Virus record (IMG/VR): IMGVR_UViG_3300013132_000038
DNA length: 20,000 nt
Source of the DNA: an uncultured virus (IMG/VR IMGVR_UViG_3300013132_000038)
Taxonomy: Duplodnaviria > Heunggongvirae > Uroviricota > Caudoviricetes
Reading direction: 5' to 3' (one strand)
A model generated the notes under the pieces. That model made no database searches. It had not been told where the DNA came from and saw nothing but the letters and a program-made list of their open reading frames with translations. Both the position numbers and the translations under genes were made by a program. How positions within the stretch are numbered: position 1 is the first letter of the stretch; each line of letters opens with the position of its first letter. Positions 2,271-20,000 of this stretch are shown here, in pieces.

Positions 2271-2851
2271 TAGGAAAAGTTTATACAACAGATCAAAGGT
2301 ATGTAAAATATCTAGAATGCAATCCTGCTGTTTATAGGAGGGTTTATTTCCAGTCTTGTAATTTAGACGTAAAAGAGGGTTCGAATATTCTTACCACTGT
2401 CTCCCTCTGTGATTTTAAACTAGAATCGCTAGGAAGCTCAGAATTAGGTGGATGTGGAGGGTCTGGTAAAAAAACTGCAACTTTAGGTCCATTAGGAACA
2501 TACACGTTAACCTCTCCTGAAATCGGGCAAGCACAAGGAGAAGTGCAAATGATAGTAGTTAAAGTCAGGTATGAAAAATCATGGGTAGAAGAGGAAAGAT
2601 ATTTAAACTGGGAATACAAAGGAAACATATATCCTTTGCACACCTTGATGGTGCTAACCGGAAGAACTGAGGCAGAAATACCATGGCAAGGATGGGATCT
2701 TAGCTATTATTCAAATAACCCACCTAGCCCAGATTTTAGTCCTCAGCCATACCCAGTAATAACTTCGCCTAATCTTTCTTTTGGGGGAATACTTTTCAGC
2801 AATCCCAATGATTCAAAAAGTGCTGAACTAGAAATATTTATTTTTAACTAA
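2267..2851 (+). CDS. hypothetical beta-rich protein, paralog A (possibly virion structural)
   Basis: 194-aa ORF; ATGA overlap with upstream gene; colinear similarity to the next ORF. Confidence 0.75.
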   Translation: MIGKVYTTDQRYVKYLECNPAVYRRVYFQSCNLDVKEGSNILTTVSLCDFKLESLGSSELGGCGGSGKKTATLGPLGTYTLTSPEIGQAQGEVQMIVVKVRYEKSWVEEERYLNWEYKGNIYPLHTLMVLTGRTEAEIPWQGWDLSYYSNNPPSPDFSPQPYPVITSPNLSFGGILFSNPNDSKSAELEIFIFN

Positions 2852-3342
2852 TGGCTACACCACCCCTAGTATGTGATCCAATCCAATTTGAAGGAGCTAT
2901 TTTTCAAAGATGTAATCTTCAGGTTATTAGAGGAACAACTGTTATTAAAGAGATGAGCCTCTGTGATACAATCATCGAAATTGGAAATTACTCAAGTTTT
3001 AGTGGATGTGTGTACGGAAATTCAAGTCTAGTTTTAAACTCTGAGGGAATGGGGGAACTCTGTTTTATAATGATTAAAGCATCATATCCTACTACACTAC
3101 CAGTTTCTAGTAGATTTATAAACATAATATACAATGGTGCATACCTTCCTATGTCAAATCTTACTATATTAACAGGAAATCCTTCCGATTTATCACCATA
3201 TACGAATAACAGGGGATGGGACTTAGATCCGAACGGTAGCGACATAGAATCGCCATTTTTTAGCAATGGAGGGATGATTCTTTATAATCCGCATTCGGTT
3301 AGAGTAAACGTGGATGTTATTTTAGGCGGGAGTATTCAATGA
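2851..3342 (+). CDS. hypothetical beta-rich protein, paralog B
   Basis: 163-aa ORF; TAATG overlap; shares FQxCNL, SLCD, LTG, GWDL and GG-x-x-x-x-NP motifs with 2267..2851. Confidence 0.75.
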   Translation: MATPPLVCDPIQFEGAIFQRCNLQVIRGTTVIKEMSLCDTIIEIGNYSSFSGCVYGNSSLVLNSEGMGELCFIMIKASYPTTLPVSSRFINIIYNGAYLPMSNLTILTGNPSDLSPYTNNRGWDLDPNGSDIESPFFSNGGMILYNPHSVRVNVDVILGGSIQ

Positions 3343-3403: not shown

Positions 3404-5722
3404 ATGGAAAAAAATATTAATCCAGAGATCAATAGATTAAATATGGAGACTTCTAGAAACGCAGCAGATTCTCTTAGAGAATGGGCTGGTTTAGGATCAG
3501 AAAAAAAACCTGTTGCATCTACTTTCCTTGGCGGATCAACAGCTCAAATGCTTAAAGAATCGCAAAACTTTGATATTTCAGGACGATCTAAAAGTAACGT
3601 TGTTTTTAGTTTTGGACTAATCAATACTGTTTCTGCCTTAAAAAATTCTTCATTAGGGGATCTTCCTGCAGGTAAGATCCTTCTCGAAAAATATGAGCAC
3701 CTATTATTAGGAAAAGGTATTTCAGAAGCTTTTATAATTGAAGGACTTTTAAATGATCTTAAATCTTTCTCCTGGGAAAATTCAGTAGCTCCAGTTTTAG
3801 AAAATTTAGAAAGGATCTTTGAAAACAGAAGAAGAGAAATAGAGGTTGTTAAAGCATACGAATCTATTAAAAATGCACCAGGAAGAGAACTTTTTTCTGA
3901 TGCTACTGGGCAAATGAAAAATTGGTTACTTGCAGAGAACAAATCAAGCGATACTCTTATACATGGACTTAAAAGCTTTGGATTTAATCCAATGGTTAGA
4001 AATTTAGTTAGCTTTTTATCTCTTTATGAAAACGATAACAGCGGTAAATTCCATGTGGGATTTGATAATAATGTTTGTAAAATAGATAATCTTTACTCGC
4101 CAATATCAGTTAGTGAAAGCGAAACATTATTTTATTCTTCTGGTAAATTTTTAAAGATAGAACACGAATCGGGAATTATCCAAGAATGTAACATTGACGA
4201 GATCCCAGACGAACTTGCAGATAAGGCTCAAATAGTTAGCGATAGAGACGTAAAAATTGAAGACAATAAGATTTCATTAAACATTGGAAACAACAAGGTA
4301 GAGATCACATTTACAAACGAATCTAAAGAGATTTATTTTGATGGTAAAAGAATAAACGAAGAGGATCTTCCAGTTGCAGTTAGTGTTAGTACTAACAATC
4401 TTTTAGAAAGCTCTAATCATAAGATTAATAAAGCAGTTTTCGTAGCTAAATCTGCTGAGGAAATCGTTGATATAGATTTTGGTAAAAAAATAAGATCTAA
4501 AGTATACGAAAACGTAGAGGTTAATCTATTTAAAACAGAAGCTGGTATTTATGTTCAAACTGTTAATCCAGCTATGAGATTAAATAAAATCTACGAGGCA
4601 AATGCAACTCAAGCAATTAAAATTGTTAAGGATTTTATTAAATATGACATCTCTGAATCTTTAACAGAATTCTTAGAAGGAGAACAAGCTTTCTTAAGCG
4701 TAATGAAAAACGACAAGAACGAGATAGTTAAAAACGTAGAGATTCTAGAAAACCAGCTTAGAAAATTAGATATAGCTAAAAGAGAAAATCCTTTACTTGC
4801 TAACTCAGAAGAACTTATCACATTAGAAGAAGGTATTCATAATGAGATTTCAGCTCTTCAAGACAGATGGAATCAAATTAACCTTGAGATCTCTAGATTT
4901 GAAAACAGAGCAAAAGAGGTTCCTTCGGTTAATGAAGATTTAGGTTATCCAATCGATACTGAGGTTAGAATTAAAAGAAACGGAAATAAAGGAAGAGTGA
5001 TTGGAGTAGACGGAAGCTCTAAAACTTATACTATTCTTTTTAAGGAAGGTAAAACTGGAGAATACTTTTTCTCCGATGTAGAAGACTTAGACGATGAGAT
5101 TGACCGATATGACATTAAAGCACCAGATCTTGATTTAGAATACACTAACGAGTCTAATCAAAACTTTGCTAATGCTCCAGGCAACAGAGGCGGATCACAC
5201 AAAGATTCTAGAATAGAAGCTCTTTCCAAAAAACACATGGCACATGCTCCAGACAAAAAAACTGGATCTTCGTCTAAGTTTATAAACAACGAGAAAGGAA
5301 CTATGGCAGGTTTACCTAAGAGTGGTAAATCAGCTCCATTAACAGGAAGAGGAGTTAATTCTAAATCTGCTAATATGGCAGATCTTCCTAGCAAAGGAAA
5401 AGGAGGAAGCGGTAAAAAATTCATAGACAATCTAGAAAATTTAGATCTTGCTAAAGCACCGAGTGCTTCTTTAAAAGGGTCTGCTAAATTTATTCAGGAT
5501 CTTAAGAATATGAATTTAGCTACTCTTAAGGAGAGCCAAAAGAATTCACACGTAGAAAAGGCACCTAAAGGTAAATCTGAAAAGTCTAAGAAATTTATCG
5601 AAGACGAAGACGATTTTAACTTTGCAGATGCTCACGGAAACAGCAAAAAGAATGGAAAAAGATTTGCAGAAAATGACAAAGTAGCAAATCTTTCATCTGC
5701 ACCGAAGACAAAAAAAAAGTAA
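3404..5722 (+). CDS. large hypothetical protein, probable head/internal protein with coiled coil, SH3/KOW-like domain and basic C-terminal repeats
   Basis: 772-aa ORF upstream of head genes; coiled coil followed by YPIDTEVRIKRNGNKGRVIGVDGSSKTYTILF (SH3/KOW-like by eye) and repeated AxAP...KFI units. Function is inference. Confidence 0.6.
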   Translation: MEKNINPEINRLNMETSRNAADSLREWAGLGSEKKPVASTFLGGSTAQMLKESQNFDISGRSKSNVVFSFGLINTVSALKNSSLGDLPAGKILLEKYEHLLLGKGISEAFIIEGLLNDLKSFSWENSVAPVLENLERIFENRRREIEVVKAYESIKNAPGRELFSDATGQMKNWLLAENKSSDTLIHGLKSFGFNPMVRNLVSFLSLYENDNSGKFHVGFDNNVCKIDNLYSPISVSESETLFYSSGKFLKIEHESGIIQECNIDEIPDELADKAQIVSDRDVKIEDNKISLNIGNNKVEITFTNESKEIYFDGKRINEEDLPVAVSVSTNNLLESSNHKINKAVFVAKSAEEIVDIDFGKKIRSKVYENVEVNLFKTEAGIYVQTVNPAMRLNKIYEANATQAIKIVKDFIKYDISESLTEFLEGEQAFLSVMKNDKNEIVKNVEILENQLRKLDIAKRENPLLANSEELITLEEGIHNEISALQDRWNQINLEISRFENRAKEVPSVNEDLGYPIDTEVRIKRNGNKGRVIGVDGSSKTYTILFKEGKTGEYFFSDVEDLDDEIDRYDIKAPDLDLEYTNESNQNFANAPGNRGGSHKDSRIEALSKKHMAHAPDKKTGSSSKFINNEKGTMAGLPKSGKSAPLTGRGVNSKSANMADLPSKGKGGSGKKFIDNLENLDLAKAPSASLKGSAKFIQDLKNMNLATLKESQKNSHVEKAPKGKSEKSKKFIEDEDDFNFADAHGNSKKNGKRFAENDKVANLSSAPKTKKK
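5713..5719 (+). other. slippery heptamer A_AAA_AAG (candidate -1 ribosomal frameshift site)
   Basis: In-frame codons ACA AAA AAA AAG TAA (5708-5722); X_XXY_YYZ pattern in the correct phase, as in E. coli dnaX and IS3-family elements. Confidence 0.65.
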
Positions 5723-5970
5723 ATAGACAATCAATAAGTGAGTCTATTGCCAAAGACCCAGACGAGGGAGTTGGTAATAGACTCAATTTTGTTTTAGATG
5801 ATTTGAAAAATTGTCTGGAAAAAATAAAAGAATTAGAAACTTCTAGTGAAGAAAACGGTAAGATAGGTATAGACACAATTAGAAATTCGAGGAAAAATTT
5901 GGAAGAATTAAGGGTTAATTTAGAACAACAAATAGAAAAGCTCCAAAATAATATCCCCGAACAAGAATGA
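5719..5970 (+). CDS. ATG-less -1 frame extension (83 aa, coiled-coil-like) of the 772-aa gene
   Basis: Frame is open 5677-5970 with no ATG: VNRQSISESIAKDPDEGVGNRLNFVLDDLKNCLEKIKELETSSEENGKIGIDTIRNSRKNLEELRVNLEQQIEKLQNNIPEQE*. It fills the whole gap, and its TGA overlaps the next ATG. Confidence 0.6.
   Translation, partial: VNRQSISESIAKDPDEGVGNRLNFVLDDLKNCLEKIKELETSSEENGKIGIDTIRNSRKNLEELRVNLEQQIEKLQNNIPEQE
5739..5785 (+). other. RNA hairpin, 15-bp stem
   Basis: TGAGTCTATTGCCAA (5739-5753) pairs with TTGGTAATAGACTCA (5771-5785) with one G-U pair; the loop also holds CCC/GGG; followed by ATTTTGTTTT. Confidence 0.75.
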
Positions 5971-6323
5971 TATACGTAAAAAACAAAGAGCTAAAAAGAG
6001 CTCTTCTTGAAAGCAAAGAAAAAGGTCAATTAACTGACGAGACCGTTAAAATGTTTACTCTTATAGTAAACGGTATGTCCAAGACACATTCCTATAGAGA
6101 TAACGAAGACAGAGAAGATTGTATATCTTCCGGACTAGAAGACTTAGTTAAATACTGGAATCGCTATGATCCCGCTAAATCTGATAATCCTTTTGCCTTT
6201 ATATCTCAGATAGCACACAATGGAATGAAGAAGGGATGGAAAAAAATACATCCGCCAAAATCACCTAAGACTATTCCATTTTCGAGAATAGTTAAGGAAG
6301 AGAATTCCAATTATAATGTATAA
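5967..6323 (+). CDS. gp55: T4 gp55-like late transcription sigma factor (short)
   Basis: YVKNKEL...LIVNGMSK...EDCISSGLEDLVKYWNRYDPAKSDNPFAFISQIAHN matches the gp55 pattern YVNNKEL...DMIxDGIE...NFDxxKxxNPxAYxTQ. Confidence 0.8.
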   Translation: MIYVKNKELKRALLESKEKGQLTDETVKMFTLIVNGMSKTHSYRDNEDREDCISSGLEDLVKYWNRYDPAKSDNPFAFISQIAHNGMKKGWKKIHPPKSPKTIPFSRIVKEENSNYNV

Positions 6324-6325
6324 GT

Positions 6326-6811
6326 GTGGATATAAAAAAGCTAAAGCCCAACGGTAAATGGGATTCTGGTAAATATTCTCCAGTTAATCCGGAAAAATAT
6401 ATTGGGGATATACATAGTATAATTTATAGAAGCTCTTGGGAAAGAAAGTTTTGTCAGTATTGCGACATTAATCCAAACATAACTAAATGGAGTTCAGAGC
6501 CCACTAGTATTCCGTATTGGTCTCCTATCGACAAGAAAGAGCACAAATATTTTGTAGATTATTACATTCAAGTAAAAAAAGAGGATGTATTTGAAAACTG
6601 GTTAATTGAAATAAAGCCAGAGGACCAATATGCTCTACATAAGAGACCTAAAGAACCAGTAGGAAATCTAACAGAGAAAAAAATAAGGTCTTATAACGAT
6701 AAACTTAAAACCTGGATAACAAATAGGGCTAAGTTTGAAGCGGCAACAAGATTTGCTGAATCTAGAGGATATAAATTTGGGGCTATCAACGAAAGCTTTA
6801 TATTGAGATGA
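6326..6811 (+). CDS. gp4: T4 gp4-like head completion nuclease (TnsA-like fold)
   Basis: GKYSPVNPEKYIGD...IIYRSSWERKF...WSSE...IPYWSPID...YFVDY...IEIKP: characteristic gp4 motifs; GTG start. Confidence 0.88.
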   Translation: MDIKKLKPNGKWDSGKYSPVNPEKYIGDIHSIIYRSSWERKFCQYCDINPNITKWSSEPTSIPYWSPIDKKEHKYFVDYYIQVKKEDVFENWLIEIKPEDQYALHKRPKEPVGNLTEKKIRSYNDKLKTWITNRAKFEAATRFAESRGYKFGAINESFILR

Positions 6812-7404
6812 TGCAGCCATTTAGAAAAAGCTTCGAGGAATATAAACTTTCAGTTTCAGGTTTATCCTCTCTCCGGGAAGAAGCTTTTATGCACTGGGTA
6901 AAAAATTACATCAATAAGAATTCACAGTTTAATCCCCTAAATTTTTTACAAGGAAAAGTTTACTCCTTTGCTTATAATGATAAATTAGAACATGGAAAAA
7001 AATTCATAAACAAAAGACCTGTAATTTTTTTTACAGGATATGATAATTATGAGAAAAAAAATCTATTCAATGGACTAGATCTTGTTTTAATCTCCCCTAT
7101 TTTTAGACTATCTTTTTTTGAAAGACTGCAAAGTGTATTCCATGATCAGATAGAAAGAAACTTAAAAAAAGAAGAAAATGGGGAGGGAAGAGATCAAGTT
7201 CCACTTAGGACGGAGTATCAAATAATGGAAACAATCCTTAAGGGTATTCCCTATAAACATGCCTACAGATCATGGGATTTAAAAAAAGTTAGGGATGTTA
7301 TGGAAATTCCTTTTGAAGATTGGACTAGAATAGTATATCTGGATACTCGATCAATTGAAGGGACCCAGTTAAATGAGATATATAATAAAAATTCACAAGT
7401 CTAA
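6808..7404 (+). CDS. gp2: T4 gp2-like DNA end protector protein
   Basis: GKVYSFAY...RPVIFF...FNGLDL...P..RL...HAYRSW...IPFEDW pattern, and adjacency to gp4. Confidence 0.65.
   Translation: MMQPFRKSFEEYKLSVSGLSSLREEAFMHWVKNYINKNSQFNPLNFLQGKVYSFAYNDKLEHGKKFINKRPVIFFTGYDNYEKKNLFNGLDLVLISPIFRLSFFERLQSVFHDQIERNLKKEENGEGRDQVPLRTEYQIMETILKGIPYKHAYRSWDLKKVRDVMEIPFEDWTRIVYLDTRSIEGTQLNEIYNKNSQV
7377..7384 (+). promoter_or_regulatory. candidate late promoter GATATATA
   Basis: Inside the 3' end of the gp2-like gene; starts 27 nt before portal ATG 7404, the same offset as at 3377. Confidence 0.55.
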
Positions 7405-9020
7405 TGGCTGGATTTACCGACGATAAAAAATCATTCTTTAGCTCTATTATAGACAGTATAAAGAAAGTGGGTAGTTTTGGAATGGCTTATGAAGATCTTG
7501 TTGTAAAGAATTCGCAAGCTGTAGGTATAACAGAAGCTCAATTTCTACAAAAAGGTGGGATTAAAGATGAATCTTTCCTATTCGGTTTAAGAAGGGCTGA
7601 TACCACTACTAAACAGTACATAGCTTATTTCGACAAGGACTATAAAAACAAAAGGCATTATTTACAAGGATTTGCACAGAATCCTGAAATCGAGTTTATA
7701 TTAGACACAATATGTGACGAGTCAATAGTTTATGACGAAAAAAACTTCTGGGCTTATTTCTCTTTTATGCAACATGATGATGTTGATGATGAAACATACG
7801 AAAAAGTTCAGAAAAGATATAAAGAGATTTATAATCTGTTTGGGTTTAATCAGGATATTTCAGCGTGGCATTTATTTAGAAAATTTCTAGTAGATGGTAT
7901 AATAGCATTTGAAATAGTTTTCGACAAGAAAGGAAAAAATATAGTAGGATTTAAAGAACTAGATCCCTGGTCTTTAATTCCAACAGTAGAAGCACAGCCA
8001 GACGGTTCTTTTATTGATATTTGGATACAGTATCCAGACAATCCATCATTAACAAGAAAACTTTACGATTCTCAGATAATTTATATAAGTTATGCTAAAG
8101 GCGGAGGAACATCCTCTAGAGTTAGTTATTGTGAAAGAATGATTCGTTCTTTTAATCTTCTAAGAATAATGGAGCACACAAGAATTATCTGGAACGTAAT
8201 GAATTCCTCATATAGGATGGCAATGACAGTTCCCATTGGTACTAGATCGCCACAAAAAGCAAAACAAACTCTAGGAGAGTTAATGTCTATATACAAAGAG
8301 GATATAAGACTTAATACTGATAGCGGAGAACTAAGTATAGACGGTAGACCAAAGATTCAATTCTTTAAGAACTATTTAATGCCTTCCTCCCCTAATGGTA
8401 CTCCAGATATACAGCCACTTCCAGGAGGAGGAGATGCCACAGCATTCTCCGATACTACAGTTCTCAAATACTTTGCAAATAAATTGAGAATGGATTCAAA
8501 AATACCCGCTACTAGATTTGGTAGAGAGGAATCGGGGTCTGAAGGAACTATCACTTTCACCGCAGAAGGATTAGATCAAGAAGAGGTTAGGTTTGGTAAA
8601 TTTATAAACAGACTAAGATCAATTTATCAAGAAATATTAATGAAGCCTTTATGGGTTCAGTTCTGCTTAGATTTTCCGCATCTTAAAAAAGATCATATAA
8701 TAAAATCTGAATTCGGTCTAGACTATGTGAAAGAAAACATGTTTGGGGAAGCTAAAGAAATGGAAGTTCTAACTGCAAGAAAAGATCAGGTAATTAAGAT
8801 ATCTGCCCTTATGAATTCTGCAGGGAAAAAATACTTTAGCATGGATTTCTTAGTTGATCGATGGCTAGGAGTAAAAGGACAAGATTTAATTAGTAACAAA
8901 AAAGCTAAAGAGAAAGCGGCGGAGGCTAAGAAGAAAGCTGCAGAAGCTGAAAGTGGAGCTACTGGAGCAGAAGGAGCTACTGGAGCAGAAGGAGGAGGAG
9001 GAGATGAATTTACACTATAA
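7404..9020 (+). CDS. gp20: T4 gp20-like portal protein, copy 1
   Basis: 538 aa; PEIEFILDTICDESIVYD, FRKFLVDG, ELDP, FNLLRIME...IIW, KIPATRF, EEVRFGKFINRLR...ILMKPLWVQ, matching T4-type portal motifs. Confidence 0.85.
   Translation: MAGFTDDKKSFFSSIIDSIKKVGSFGMAYEDLVVKNSQAVGITEAQFLQKGGIKDESFLFGLRRADTTTKQYIAYFDKDYKNKRHYLQGFAQNPEIEFILDTICDESIVYDEKNFWAYFSFMQHDDVDDETYEKVQKRYKEIYNLFGFNQDISAWHLFRKFLVDGIIAFEIVFDKKGKNIVGFKELDPWSLIPTVEAQPDGSFIDIWIQYPDNPSLTRKLYDSQIIYISYAKGGGTSSRVSYCERMIRSFNLLRIMEHTRIIWNVMNSSYRMAMTVPIGTRSPQKAKQTLGELMSIYKEDIRLNTDSGELSIDGRPKIQFFKNYLMPSSPNGTPDIQPLPGGGDATAFSDTTVLKYFANKLRMDSKIPATRFGREESGSEGTITFTAEGLDQEEVRFGKFINRLRSIYQEILMKPLWVQFCLDFPHLKKDHIIKSEFGLDYVKENMFGEAKEMEVLTARKDQVIKISALMNSAGKKYFSMDFLVDRWLGVKGQDLISNKKAKEKAAEAKKKAAEAESGATGAEGATGAEGGGGDEFTL
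8955..8990 (+). repeat. 18-nt tandem duplication in the tail of portal copy 1
   Basis: GGAGCTACTGGAGCAGAA x2, encoding GATGAE twice. Confidence 0.9.
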
Positions 9021-9026
9021 AATAAA

Positions 9027-10649
9027 ATGGCTGGATTTTTAGATAAATTAGGAAAAATAAACCCCAATATCTCCAGGATATTAAAAACTATTAGTGGACT
9101 AGGGTCTTTTGGGATGGAATACAAAGATATGGTTATCCAAGACTCAATGGCAATCGGTGTATCTGAAGCCAACATGAGAGAAAGATTTGGATTTACTGAT
9201 TCTGATGAGGATTTTATCTATAGTATAGCAGCTCAGGACACTTCCAATAGAAAATACATAGCATACTTCGATAAGGATTATCCATTTAAAAGAGATTTTC
9301 TTAGAACTTTTGCTTTAAATGCTGAAATAGAATACATCTTAGACACTATCTGTGATGAAGCAATAGTTTACGATGAAAAGAACTTCTTTTGTCATCCTGC
9401 TTTGATGAATATGGATCTTAAGGATGACGTAATAAAAGCTTTAAGAAATAATTTTAGAAAATTATACGTATTACATAACTTTGCCAATGGACTTACTGGA
9501 TGGCAATATTTTAGACAATTAATAGTAGAGGGATTTCTTGCCTTTGAAATCATATACTCTAATGACGGAAAAGAGATAGTAGGTTTTAAAGAATTAGACG
9601 CAGTTAGTTTAACCCCCGCTGTTGAAAAAAAACCCGACGGAACTAGAGAAACCATATGGTGGCAATATTACGGAGAAACTGTAAGACAAAGAAAACTTCT
9701 AGATGCACAGGTTATCTACATATCGTATGCTAAAGCAAACGTAGTTTCTAGAGTTTCATATACCGAAAGACTTATAAGATCCTATAACTTGTTAAAAATC
9801 ATGGAGCATTCCAGAATAATCTGGAACGTAATGAATGCCCAATATAGAATTAAGATGACGGTTCCTATTGGTAGTAAAGCTCCACAAAAAGCTAAAGAAA
9901 CATTGGGAGAGCTTATGTCTGTCTATAAGGAGGATATTAAGCTTGATACGACTTCGGGGGAGCTTTCAATAAACGGTAGACCTGATATACAATTTTATAA
10001 AAACTATTTATTCCCACAACAAGGGGGTGAATCGGTTAAAATCGAAACATTAAACGCACAGGGTCCAAATTTAAATATTATGGACTCAGTAGTTTATTTC
10101 TATAACAAATTAAGACAAGACTCTAAAATTCCTTATAATAGATTCTCATCTAGATTTGGTGTCGGATCTAACAATGTATTTAAAACTGCTGCAGATGGAG
10201 CAGAAAGGGACGAAGTTAGATTTGCTAAGTTTATAACACGTCTTAGGTCTATATTTCAAGAGATCGTTGTTAAACCCCTATGGATTCAAATGTGTCTCGA
10301 TTTTCCAGATCTTAAGAATGATTCAGAATTTAGAAGTCAGATAGGTGTTAAATTCGAAAGCGATAACATATTCGGGGAATCTAGAGAGATAGAGCAATTA
10401 ATAAAGAAAATAGATTTTATAACATCTATGGGCGAAATCAAAGAAACTGTAAACGAAGAAGAAGTACAGTTCTTTGACCAGGATTTTATGATAGAGAGAT
10501 GGCTAGATTTATCATACGATGATATACAATTAAATAAGTCATACGTAAAAAAAGCTGAAGAATCTGGAAAATCTGCAGCGACAGGAGCGACAGGAGGAGA
10601 CGCAGCAGCAGGAGATGAAGCAGCAGGGGGAGCTGAAGCAGCAGTATAA
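9027..10649 (+). CDS. gp20: T4 gp20-like portal protein, copy 2
   Basis: 540 aa; AEIEYILDTICDEAIVYD, YNLLKIMEHSRIIW, KIPYNRF, RDEVRFAKFITRLRSIF...KPLWIQ; colinear with copy 1. Confidence 0.85.
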   Translation: MAGFLDKLGKINPNISRILKTISGLGSFGMEYKDMVIQDSMAIGVSEANMRERFGFTDSDEDFIYSIAAQDTSNRKYIAYFDKDYPFKRDFLRTFALNAEIEYILDTICDEAIVYDEKNFFCHPALMNMDLKDDVIKALRNNFRKLYVLHNFANGLTGWQYFRQLIVEGFLAFEIIYSNDGKEIVGFKELDAVSLTPAVEKKPDGTRETIWWQYYGETVRQRKLLDAQVIYISYAKANVVSRVSYTERLIRSYNLLKIMEHSRIIWNVMNAQYRIKMTVPIGSKAPQKAKETLGELMSVYKEDIKLDTTSGELSINGRPDIQFYKNYLFPQQGGESVKIETLNAQGPNLNIMDSVVYFYNKLRQDSKIPYNRFSSRFGVGSNNVFKTAADGAERDEVRFAKFITRLRSIFQEIVVKPLWIQMCLDFPDLKNDSEFRSQIGVKFESDNIFGESREIEQLIKKIDFITSMGEIKETVNEEEVQFFDQDFMIERWLDLSYDDIQLNKSYVKKAEESGKSAATGATGGDAAAGDEAAGGAEAAV

Positions 10650-15715: not shown

Positions 15716-18616
<2,901 letters not shown>

Positions 18617-18673: not shown

Positions 18674-20000
18674 ATGCCTCAAATATCCAGATTACCAGTA
18701 ACTATGATCGCAAGCGTCGAGCCCGGATCAGTTACTGTTAATAGTTACTATAATAATCCATCTAGTGTCTGGGACGGGTTTCCATCAAGTTTTGATTGCA
18801 CATTAAATTTAATAGCAACTCCTACATCACAGGAGCCTAATTTTACTTTTGATGCTAACGATCTAACAGTAGGCATGTGGTTTTTACAGCCTAATGGTAA
18901 TGCTTTTTCGATAACCGATATTAATGTTATCAATAACTTAGAAGTAGACGTAACTTTAAAAGATGTAGATCTTTATAATCTAGTAAGTGACTACACAGTA
19001 TCCGGTAATAACTACCCAACAGAGGGTATAAATGGAATAACATTTGAGGTATCCGAAGATGGTGCTCCTGTAACGGCTTTAATAGCAACTGCACTAGCCC
19101 CAAATCTAGACGAAAATGGATACTGGATAGATGATGCGTTAGCCAGATTTCAATTTAGAAACATAGTTAAAGCTAGCTATACGAACGTTTTTTCCCCCAA
19201 TCCAACATATTCACTATTTAATGTAGGCCAAGTTGTTTATTTAGACATTTACGGTGTTTTTGATATAGTAGACACAACATCATTAACAGAGGTAGAAAAA
19301 GCATTCGGAGTTATAACATCGATAGATGAGCCCGAATCGGGAAATATAAACGTTAGGCCCTTCGGTAGAATAGTAACGACACCTTTTATTTTACCAGGAA
19401 ATATTGGCGAAGTATTATATTTTGATAATAGTGTTACTCCTTCCTATGTTACTAATGTTAAACCAGTAGTAAACCCAATACCAGTCTATATTAAAATAAG
19501 TGACTATGTTGGTTCTTATTTGTACCCTGCACAAGGGAGTGGGTCAGGAACAACATCAGGAACCAGCGGAACATCTGGTATAGATGGATCTTCTGGAACT
19601 TCGGGAACGGACGGAACTAGCGGATCTTCTGGGGCATCAGGAACTAGTGGATCCTCAGGAACAGATGGAACTAGTGGAAGCTCAGGATCTTCAGGAACAA
19701 GTGGATCTAGTGGATCTTCGGGGACAAGTGGAAGCTCGGGATCTTCAGGAACAAGTGGATCTTCAGGAACAAGTGGATCTAGTGGATCTTCGGGAACAAG
19801 TGGAAGCTCAGGATCTTCAGGAACAGACGGAACAAGTGGATCTTCAGGAACAAGTGGATCTAGTGGATCTTCGGGGACAAGTGGAAGCTCAGGATCTTCA
19901 GGAACAAGTGGATCTAGTGGATCTTCAGGAACAAGTGGAAGCTCAGGATCTTCAGGAACAAGTGGAAGCTCAGGATCTTCAGGAACAGACGGAACAAGTG
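18674..20000 (+). CDS. structural/fibre-like protein with Gly-X-Ser repeats, 3'-truncated
   Basis: Not in the ORF track because it has no stop. Manual translation MPQISRLPVTMIASVEPGSV...YWIDDALARFQFRN...VRPFGR...YPAQGSGSGTTSGTSGTSGIDGSSGTS... stays open to the window end. Confidence 0.85.
   Translation, partial: MPQISRLPVTMIASVEPGSVTVNSYYNNPSSVWDGFPSSFDCTLNLIATPTSQEPNFTFDANDLTVGMWFLQPNGNAFSITDINVINNLEVDVTLKDVDLYNLVSDYTVSGNNYPTEGINGITFEVSEDGAPVTALIATALAPNLDENGYWIDDALARFQFRNIVKASYTNVFSPNPTYSLFNVGQVVYLDIYGVFDIVDTTSLTEVEKAFGVITSIDEPESGNINVRPFGRIVTTPFILPGNIGEVLYFDNSVTPSYVTNVKPVVNPIPVYIKISDYVGSYLYPAQGSGSGTTSGTSGTSGIDGSSGTSGTDGTSGSSGASGTSGSSGTDGTSGSSGSSGTSGSSGSSGTSGSSGSSGTSGSSGTSGSSGSSGTSGSSGSSGTDGTSGSSGTSGSSGSSGTSGSSGSSGTSGSSGSSGTSGSSGSSGTSGSSGSSGTDGTS
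19559..20000 (+). repeat. 9-nt-unit tandem repeat encoding GTS/GSS/GTD
   Basis: About 49 units such as GGAACAAGT, GGAAGCTCA, GGATCTTCA, GGATCTAGT, with recurring 27-nt higher-order blocks. Confidence 0.95.

Follow-up and report, generated by a model that had tools for sequence, protein, structure and literature searches.

A conserved poly-A run before the stop codon of a T4-like phage gene is a probable recoding site for a C-terminally extended isoform

Does a phage gene that ends in nine consecutive adenines and a stop codon encode one protein or two? The question is raised by a stretch of DNA of 20,000 nucleotides (nt) from an uncultured, freshwater, T4-like phage (IMG/VR record IMGVR_UViG_3300013132_000038), which is AT-rich (G+C 34.7%) and which, at its full length, we call the window. 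Its gene at 3404..5722 encodes a protein of 772 amino acids (aa), and beyond the stop codon the −1 reading frame continues for a further 83 codons. We consider it very likely that this gene is recoded, by one mechanism or another, into isoforms of 772 and 855 aa (772+83), and on balance we favour slippage of RNA polymerase on the A run as the main source of the shift. The site is an unusually well conserved example of poly-A recoding, a phenomenon that is already known. The features on which the argument depends are as follows.

3404..5722, plus strand: the zero-frame gene, 772 aa, from the list of open reading frames (ORFs).
5710..5718, plus strand: the run of nine A's, the putative slippage site, beginning at the third position of the codon ACA.
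5713..5719, plus strand: the in-phase heptamer A_AAA_AAG, a candidate ribosomal −1 shift site, whose last base is G, C, T or A in relatives.
5720..5722, plus strand: the zero-frame stop TAA, adjoining the shift site; TAA, TAG or TGA in relatives and never a sense codon.
5719..5970, plus strand: the −1 frame extension, 83 codons and a TGA, in which about 14 residues of variable linker precede a conserved helical segment.
5739..5797, plus strand: a hairpin and U-tract inside the extension ORF, in which 5739-5753 pairs with 5771-5785 and is followed by AUUUUGUUUUA (5786-5796).
5967..6323, plus strand: a gp55-like late sigma factor gene (Pfam Sigma70_r2, 3.1e-06; phrog_234 'late sigma transcription factor', 2.6e-16).

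The final codons of the gene are ACA (5708-10), AAA (5711-13), AAA (5714-16), AAG (5717-19) and TAA (5720-22). A preliminary description of the locus, made from the sequence alone, had drawn attention to this ending and to its in-phase heptamer, and both are confirmed at 5708-5722. It had also described the −1 frame correctly, as an 83-codon frame that has no ATG start, fills the gap between the two genes and overlaps the next start. This frame is closed upstream by a TGA at 5674-76, 14 codons before the site, is open from 5719, and ends at the TGA at 5968-70, which overlaps the ATG of the sigma factor gene (ATGA). The earliest ATG, GTG or TTG codon that it contains in the window is a TTG at 5803, its codon 29. 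The residues predicted from the −1 frame after the terminal three lysines are Val-Asn-Arg-Gln, and the conserved helical segment beyond the linker reads GNRLNFVLDDLK...ELETSS...KIG..I..SR.NLE.L...LE.QI.KLQNN.P. In the model that we propose, most of the product would end at the zero-frame stop as a 772-aa protein with a Lys-Lys-Lys end, and a fraction would continue in the −1 frame, gaining 83 residues to give an 855-aa protein with a helical C-terminal segment.

Apart from 5710-5718, no run of A's in the 20-kb window reaches nine. About 1.8 runs of this length or longer are expected from composition alone, and the evidence is therefore to be sought in conservation and not in the single occurrence. 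The close clade of relatives comprises 49 IMG/VR loci of 40-96% identity, seven of which stop short of the gene end. Each of the 42 loci assessed has the run, as nine A's and a G (37 loci), nine A's and a C (two) or ten A's (three), with an adjoining stop codon (TAA in 39, TAG in three) and then an open −1 frame of 81-86 codons. In all 42, the sigma factor gene starts within or immediately next to the stop codon of the extension. The run, the stop and the extension are kept in the locus L041, at 40% identity. A profile added a distant clade of 73 loci, at about 30% identity and on contigs of up to 434 kb; three of these lay on contigs counted already and eight run off early. In all 62 that were assessed, nine or ten A's are followed by a single further base and a stop; 47 loci have C after the run and 11 have G, three have ten A's and a T, and one has ten A's. 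The −1 ORF is complete in 60 of the 62 (50-61 codons, or 77 in one locus), and the other two loci end first. Homologues of about 30% identity from a public protein search likewise end in KKK or KKN. The preliminary description had proposed the conservation of heptamer, stop and open −1 frame as a check, and the combination is kept in 42/42 close and 62/62 distant loci.

Thus the run has nine or ten A's in all 104 related loci that reach the end of the gene, and is never shorter. The codon that gives the first A varies (ACA, TCA, GCA, AGA, TTA, GTA and GAA), yet its last letter is always A, which argues for a constraint on the nucleotide run and not only on Lys-Lys-Lys. When the extensions of the close and distant clades were compared, no match of one to the other was found; the distant-clade extension reads LSRNFYFAP...KAPTGK and then has an acidic tail that resembles the repeats of the zero-frame tail. 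Judged by sequence comparison, the element common to both clades is the run together with the stop. One distant subclade (L073-L095 and relatives) has a second run of 6-8 A's after the stop (A9, C, TAA, A's), which reads Lys-Lys in the −1 frame.

A natural control is provided by the P0096 subclade (L123-L127, 48% identity), in which run and extension are jointly absent. Neither the A run nor the extension ORF is present in any of its five loci, which have instead a non-coding gap of 207 nt before the sigma factor gene, and this subclade is nearer to the window than is L041 or the distant clade.

A metagenome pattern scan, which demanded at least nine A's and says nothing on shorter runs, returned at least 116 loci. 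Among the matches listed, 28 were flagged for the motif, one of them (L197) falsely; the other 27 flagged loci have nine A's in 26 cases and eleven in one (L148). Two metagenome contigs (L135 and L181) have an extension ORF that is broken further down, possibly through assembly errors or chimeras.

Because homopolymers are error-prone, and because L148 shows eleven A's, the simplest objection to two isoforms is that the frame break is an error hiding a continuous 855-aa gene, or else a fixed frameshift that has cut off a useless C-terminus. The A9 site is not a sequencing artefact, since a contig from an independent DNA run (X2) is identical to the window across 5415-5996 and since every one of the 104 related contigs that extend to the end of the gene retains the run. 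The same frame break recurs in each of these independent contigs. No in-frame fusion was found among the 118 homologues of the 772-aa protein, among longer proteins or, by profile search, among 1.84 billion representative proteins. Decay, like error, is also contradicted by purifying selection on the downstream frame in two clades that have diverged to about 30% identity. We regard this explanation as extremely improbable.

The selection was measured as the ratio of non-synonymous to synonymous polymorphism (pN/pS) and as the number of stops in each frame.

Close clade, conserved core, −1 frame: pN/pS 0.30, no stops.
Close clade, first 14 codons (linker), −1 frame: pN/pS 1.08, no stops.
Close clade, same DNA, two other frames: pN/pS 0.85 and 1.50, with 241 and 202 stops.
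Distant clade, first 14 codons past the junction, −1 frame: pN/pS 0.31, no stops.
Distant clade, same DNA, two other frames: pN/pS 1.11 and 1.38, with 100 and 230 stops.

The −1 ORF is under purifying selection in both clades. A selected ORF might still be a small gene in its own right, with initiation at a start codon of its own or re-initiation after the zero-frame stop, and with no fusion protein being made. Public gene callers do call fragments of the ORF as proteins, and the window has the TTG at codon 29. When a profile of the extension was searched against the 1.84 billion representatives, eight of its nine matches were fragments of 45-74 aa that start inside the ORF; the ninth was a 494-aa coiled-coil protein that aligned in eight pieces. 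However, the TTG is absent from eight of the 23 distinct close-clade sequences, which have no conserved start codon before about codon 60, and among 36 distinct extension ORFs of the distant clade, 19 lack any ATG, GTG or TTG. Conservation in that clade begins with the first codon past the junction. The ORF occurs only behind the A run, and vanishes along with it. An independent gene is therefore very unlikely, as are a sequencing error and a decayed gene, given the results on selection, start codons, fusions and the X2 contig. The C-terminus of P0111, an 859-aa distant homologue, looked extension-like by eye, but neither BLASTP nor hhalign gave a match.

These results support the proposal of the preliminary description that the phage makes a 772-aa form and, through a −1 shift, a form of about 855 aa: the site is conserved, the extension is selected and it has no start of its own. 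In-frame fusions, a conserved start within the extension and an unconserved downstream frame, each of which had been named as telling against the proposal, were not found. Its account of the mechanism, a ribosomal shift of the dnaX type with the hairpin as stimulator, fared less well.

The hairpin itself is real, and lies where it had been described. Its stem has 15 bp, one of them a G-U pair, with a minimum free energy of −27.3 kcal/mol (z = −5.6), and none of 200 shuffled sequences folds as well. It begins 19 nt past the heptamer and 16 nt past the stop, whereas the usual spacing of a stimulator acting at the entry channel of the ribosome is 5-9 nt. Of 23 distinct close relatives, 22 share an 8-bp core of the stem (TGAGTCTR / YAGACTCA), one pair of which covaries (GC in 11, AU in eight, GU in three), and the T-rich stretch after the stem is invariant in the close clade. 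The invariant codons of the stem arms are weak evidence, since many other codons of the extension are invariant as well. L041 has a different stem, 26 nt away, followed by seven U's. In the distant clade, no conserved structure was found from −40 to +110 around the site, and in four of the five loci folded the extension's stop codon has a textbook terminator behind it. Two loci of the subclade that lacks the run (L123 and L126) have textbook terminators 21-24 nt after the gene stop, at approximately the same relative place as the hairpin. A stable stem that is followed directly by a U-rich tract is characteristic of intrinsic terminators, and this is the arrangement seen at 5739-5797; an automated terminator scan missed the hairpin because its loop is above the limit of 8 used by the scan. 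On account of the U-tract, the spacing of 19 nt, the absence from the distant clade and the terminators of the run-less subclade, the hairpin was rejected as a frameshift stimulator and looks like a candidate intrinsic terminator of the upstream transcription unit.

Which enzyme, then, would slip? T4-like phages use the host RNA polymerase, and nine A's match the length of the RNA:DNA hybrid. We therefore propose that the host polymerase would add an extra A in part of the transcripts, and that ordinary translation of these A10 mRNAs would read straight into the extension. On runs of nine A's or T's, bacterial RNA polymerase slips efficiently in vivo, and genomes begin to avoid such runs (PMC5009743, PMC1088944). 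We favour polymerase slippage because the run always has at least nine A's, because the base after the run is free, and because no stimulator close to the site is conserved. The base after the run switches even between near-identical phages (C in L026, G in L028).

One RNA sequence is consistent with slippage during transcription. A contig of the metatranscriptome run X21, which comes from a close relative of L043, is 151 letters long where the window has 150 positions. Reconstruction from the table of differences places the extra letter between 5699 and 5719 and gives ten A's before the G. Among at least 66 close-clade DNA contigs that have G after the run (37 close loci, 27 metagenome loci, the window and X2), a single one, the L148 contig, deviates. 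Metatranscriptome contigs from a second RNA run (X20) stop at 5652 and resume at 5764, and none extends across 5653-5763.

The principal alternative is programmed −1 frameshifting by the ribosome on A_AAA_AAG, with tRNA-Lys in the P and A sites (or in the P and E sites, with the stop codon in the A site) re-pairing one base back. Slow termination at the adjoining stop would aid the slip, and the next codon read would be GTA. Each of the 104 loci that extend to the end of the gene has an in-phase heptamer of the form A_AAA_AAN (X_XXY_YYZ type). In Escherichia coli, A_AAA_AAG shifts more readily than any other heptamer, and for some bacteria a dnaX site has been proposed in which the stop codon adjoins the shift site (both PMC5009743). 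That the adjoining zero-frame codon remains a stop in every locus fits a slip aided by a stop codon in the A site. However, a stimulatory structure at 5-9 nt is lacking: the hairpin of the close clade is too distant and resembles a terminator, and the distant clade has no conserved structure at all. Furthermore, 47 of the 62 distant sites end in C, and A_AAA_AAC is much less shift-prone in E. coli (PMC5009743); G and C interchange between near-identical phages. The three A's upstream of the heptamer are invariant though they lie outside it, and the ten A's of X21 are likewise not expected from a ribosomal slip. We judge a purely ribosomal mechanism to be a real but distinctly less probable explanation. 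Of the heptamer mechanism in the preliminary description, the in-phase heptamer stands; the invariant feature is the run of at least nine A's, and a ribosome-only shift is not the best account of it. A ribosomal −1 slip would give the same protein as polymerase slippage, and probably contributes to it.

Several points weigh against the polymerase as the main source of the shift. Every locus has the heptamer in phase and the stop right beside it, neither of which polymerase slippage needs; a stop (TAA, TAG or TGA) persists even where a change that is synonymous in the −1 frame would destroy it. Nine A's are also compatible with a ribosomal slip that involves three tRNAs. The hint from X21 is one contig of 151 nt, at a depth of 4.7 and from one run, and it is the RNA of a relative and not of the window phage; slippage of reverse transcriptase or in PCR, DNA carry-over or a rare DNA variant could yield its ten A's, and L148, with its eleven A's, is a DNA contig. 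Efficient termination at the hairpin would end transcripts inside the extension ORF, and read-through must be assumed. Finally, the long form in this phage is predicted from sequence; its production, its share and the level of the slip are what we infer.

Programmed transcriptional slippage sites include those of insertion sequence (IS) elements and of Shigella spa13/mxiE. Two features expected of a slippage site are present here, namely a run at least as long as the hybrid (nine or more) and a selected product in the alternative frame. Sites of the E. coli dnaX and IS3/IS911 type have a stem-loop about 6 nt downstream, and dnaX has, in addition, an upstream Shine–Dalgarno-like element. The gene described here has the same A_AAA_AAG heptamer, in phase, with two products predicted from one gene; the stem-loop or pseudoknot at about 5-9 nt downstream was not found. 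Unlike at dnaX and IS3, no such stimulator is conserved, and the nearest hairpin is 19 nt off and carries a U-tract.

The tssM1 gene of Citrobacter rodentium and tssM of Yersinia pseudotuberculosis undergo transcriptional frameshifting at a poly-A tract directly before a stop codon, and for tssM1 slippage was demonstrated and both isoforms are needed (PMC4256274). The likeness is close: an A run lies right before the zero-frame stop, extra A's in the mRNA lead to a C-terminally extended form, and one gene has two product lengths. In contrast, tssM1 has eleven A's, is a bacterial secretion gene and was seen as the rescue of an interrupted gene. The run described here has nine A's and lies in a phage gene, in two deep clades with unrelated extensions, and slippage at it is inferred rather than measured. 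The dnaX gene of Thermus thermophilus also has a run of nine A's on the sense strand, and there gives heterogeneous mRNA and two products at a set ratio (PMC5009743, PMC1088944). Its slipped transcripts yield the shorter product, with stops in both other frames; here slipped transcripts would yield the longer one. Recoded C-terminal extensions are known in phages as well, including T7 10A/10B, the T3 coat protein, Listeria phages A118 and A500 (−1) and PSA (+1) (PMC5009743). Like these, the present site would shift the frame at the 3′ end of a phage late gene to give a minor, C-terminally extended form. Those cases are ribosomal shifts in known capsid or tail proteins, whereas the conserved signal here is a poly-A run and not a heptamer with a pseudoknot.

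Among tailed phages, the site adds a natural example of poly-A recoding that is conserved deeply, across two clades at about 30% identity: the signal persists although the extension behind it has been exchanged, and one subclade has lost both together. It could serve as a clean system in which to separate polymerase slippage from ribosomal slippage. Gene callers mis-annotate the locus, since public proteins end at 772 aa and the extension is seen merely as small fragments.

A link between the choice of isoform and expression of the late sigma factor is also possible. A speculative idea, to which we give little weight, is that three elements of the close clade act together as an attenuator driven by the choice of frame: the recoding site, the putative terminator within the extension, and the overlap between the extension's stop codon and the sigma factor start. 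A ribosome that ends at the zero-frame stop would leave the terminator free to form, and transcription would stop. A ribosome in the −1 frame, whether on a slipped transcript or after a ribosomal slip, would melt the hairpin, allow the polymerase to read into gp55, and itself be delivered to the gp55 start. Were this so, the slip rate would set both the ratio of the isoforms and the supply of late sigma factor.

The 772-aa protein matched no Pfam or PHROG family, and a sequence search of the PDB returned no solved structure; all of the 118 homologues from the public protein search are unnamed or 'hypothetical'. In an AlphaFold model built on 38 homologues, residues from about 65 to 565 are confidently folded, with a helical N-domain, a beta-rich middle, a long helical hairpin (417-501) and a Tudor/SH3-like barrel (about 515-565). 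From residue 567 onward the model is disordered; this tail (567-772) is rich in Lys, Ala and Pro and has repeats of the type KFI..(N/D)LA.AP. Fold searches (Foldseek PDB, VIA-align wide and ESM Atlas) recognize just a generic helical hairpin (428-503) and the Tudor/SH3-like barrel (about 514-566), and this result is no evidence for a new fold. The only structural relatives of the whole domain are uncharacterized myovirus proteins, one of them from the Tenacibaculum phage PTm1 (E 1.2e-15), which hints at hosts among the Bacteroidota.

Named phages offered little more: blastn and tblastn searches against 50,697 phage records gave one match of 104 bp and one weak match, to an unannotated record of 462 kb. 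The preliminary description knew of no account of such a site in a T4-like head cluster, and our literature searches on the site and the protein family, extended to Tenacibaculum phages and covering texts that were available in part, found no description of either. Its label of 'head-region protein' must be regarded as tentative. The protein itself matches no family, and the neighbouring genes are gp55, gp4, gp2 and two gp20 portals. Beyond the sigma factor gene, these neighbours are as follows.

6326-6811: gp4-like head completion protein (Pfam/PHROG).
6808-7404: gp2-like DNA end protector (Pfam/PHROG).
7404-9020 and 9027-10649: two tandem gp20 portal paralogues, both full-length matches to Pfam Portal_T4.

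The two portal paralogues are 49% identical over 519 residues, and the presence of two in one phage is unusual. The T4 late promoter motif is TATAAATA; it has three matches in the window against 3.7 expected, none of them near the gene. No tRNA genes were found in the window.

Directly upstream of the recoded gene lie two adjacent small paralogues (2267-2851 and 2851-3342; 28% identity, E 1e-19) that have no family match, and a homologue is found at the same place in L123. The 416-aa ORF at 1020-2270 begins with hydrophobic segments, is coiled-coil in its middle and ends in a charged tail; its only matches are weak, to spanin-like and hemolysin-like PHROGs (E about 0.002-0.005). Beyond the portals are a putative ligase-like ORF and a clamp-loader-like ORF, labels that come from the translations. 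Towards the end of the window, the long ORFs at 15716-18616 and 18674-20000 are rich in Gly-X-Y (collagen-like) and Ser/Gly/Thr triplet repeats and probably encode fibres; the repeats also create long spurious ORFs on the opposite strand.

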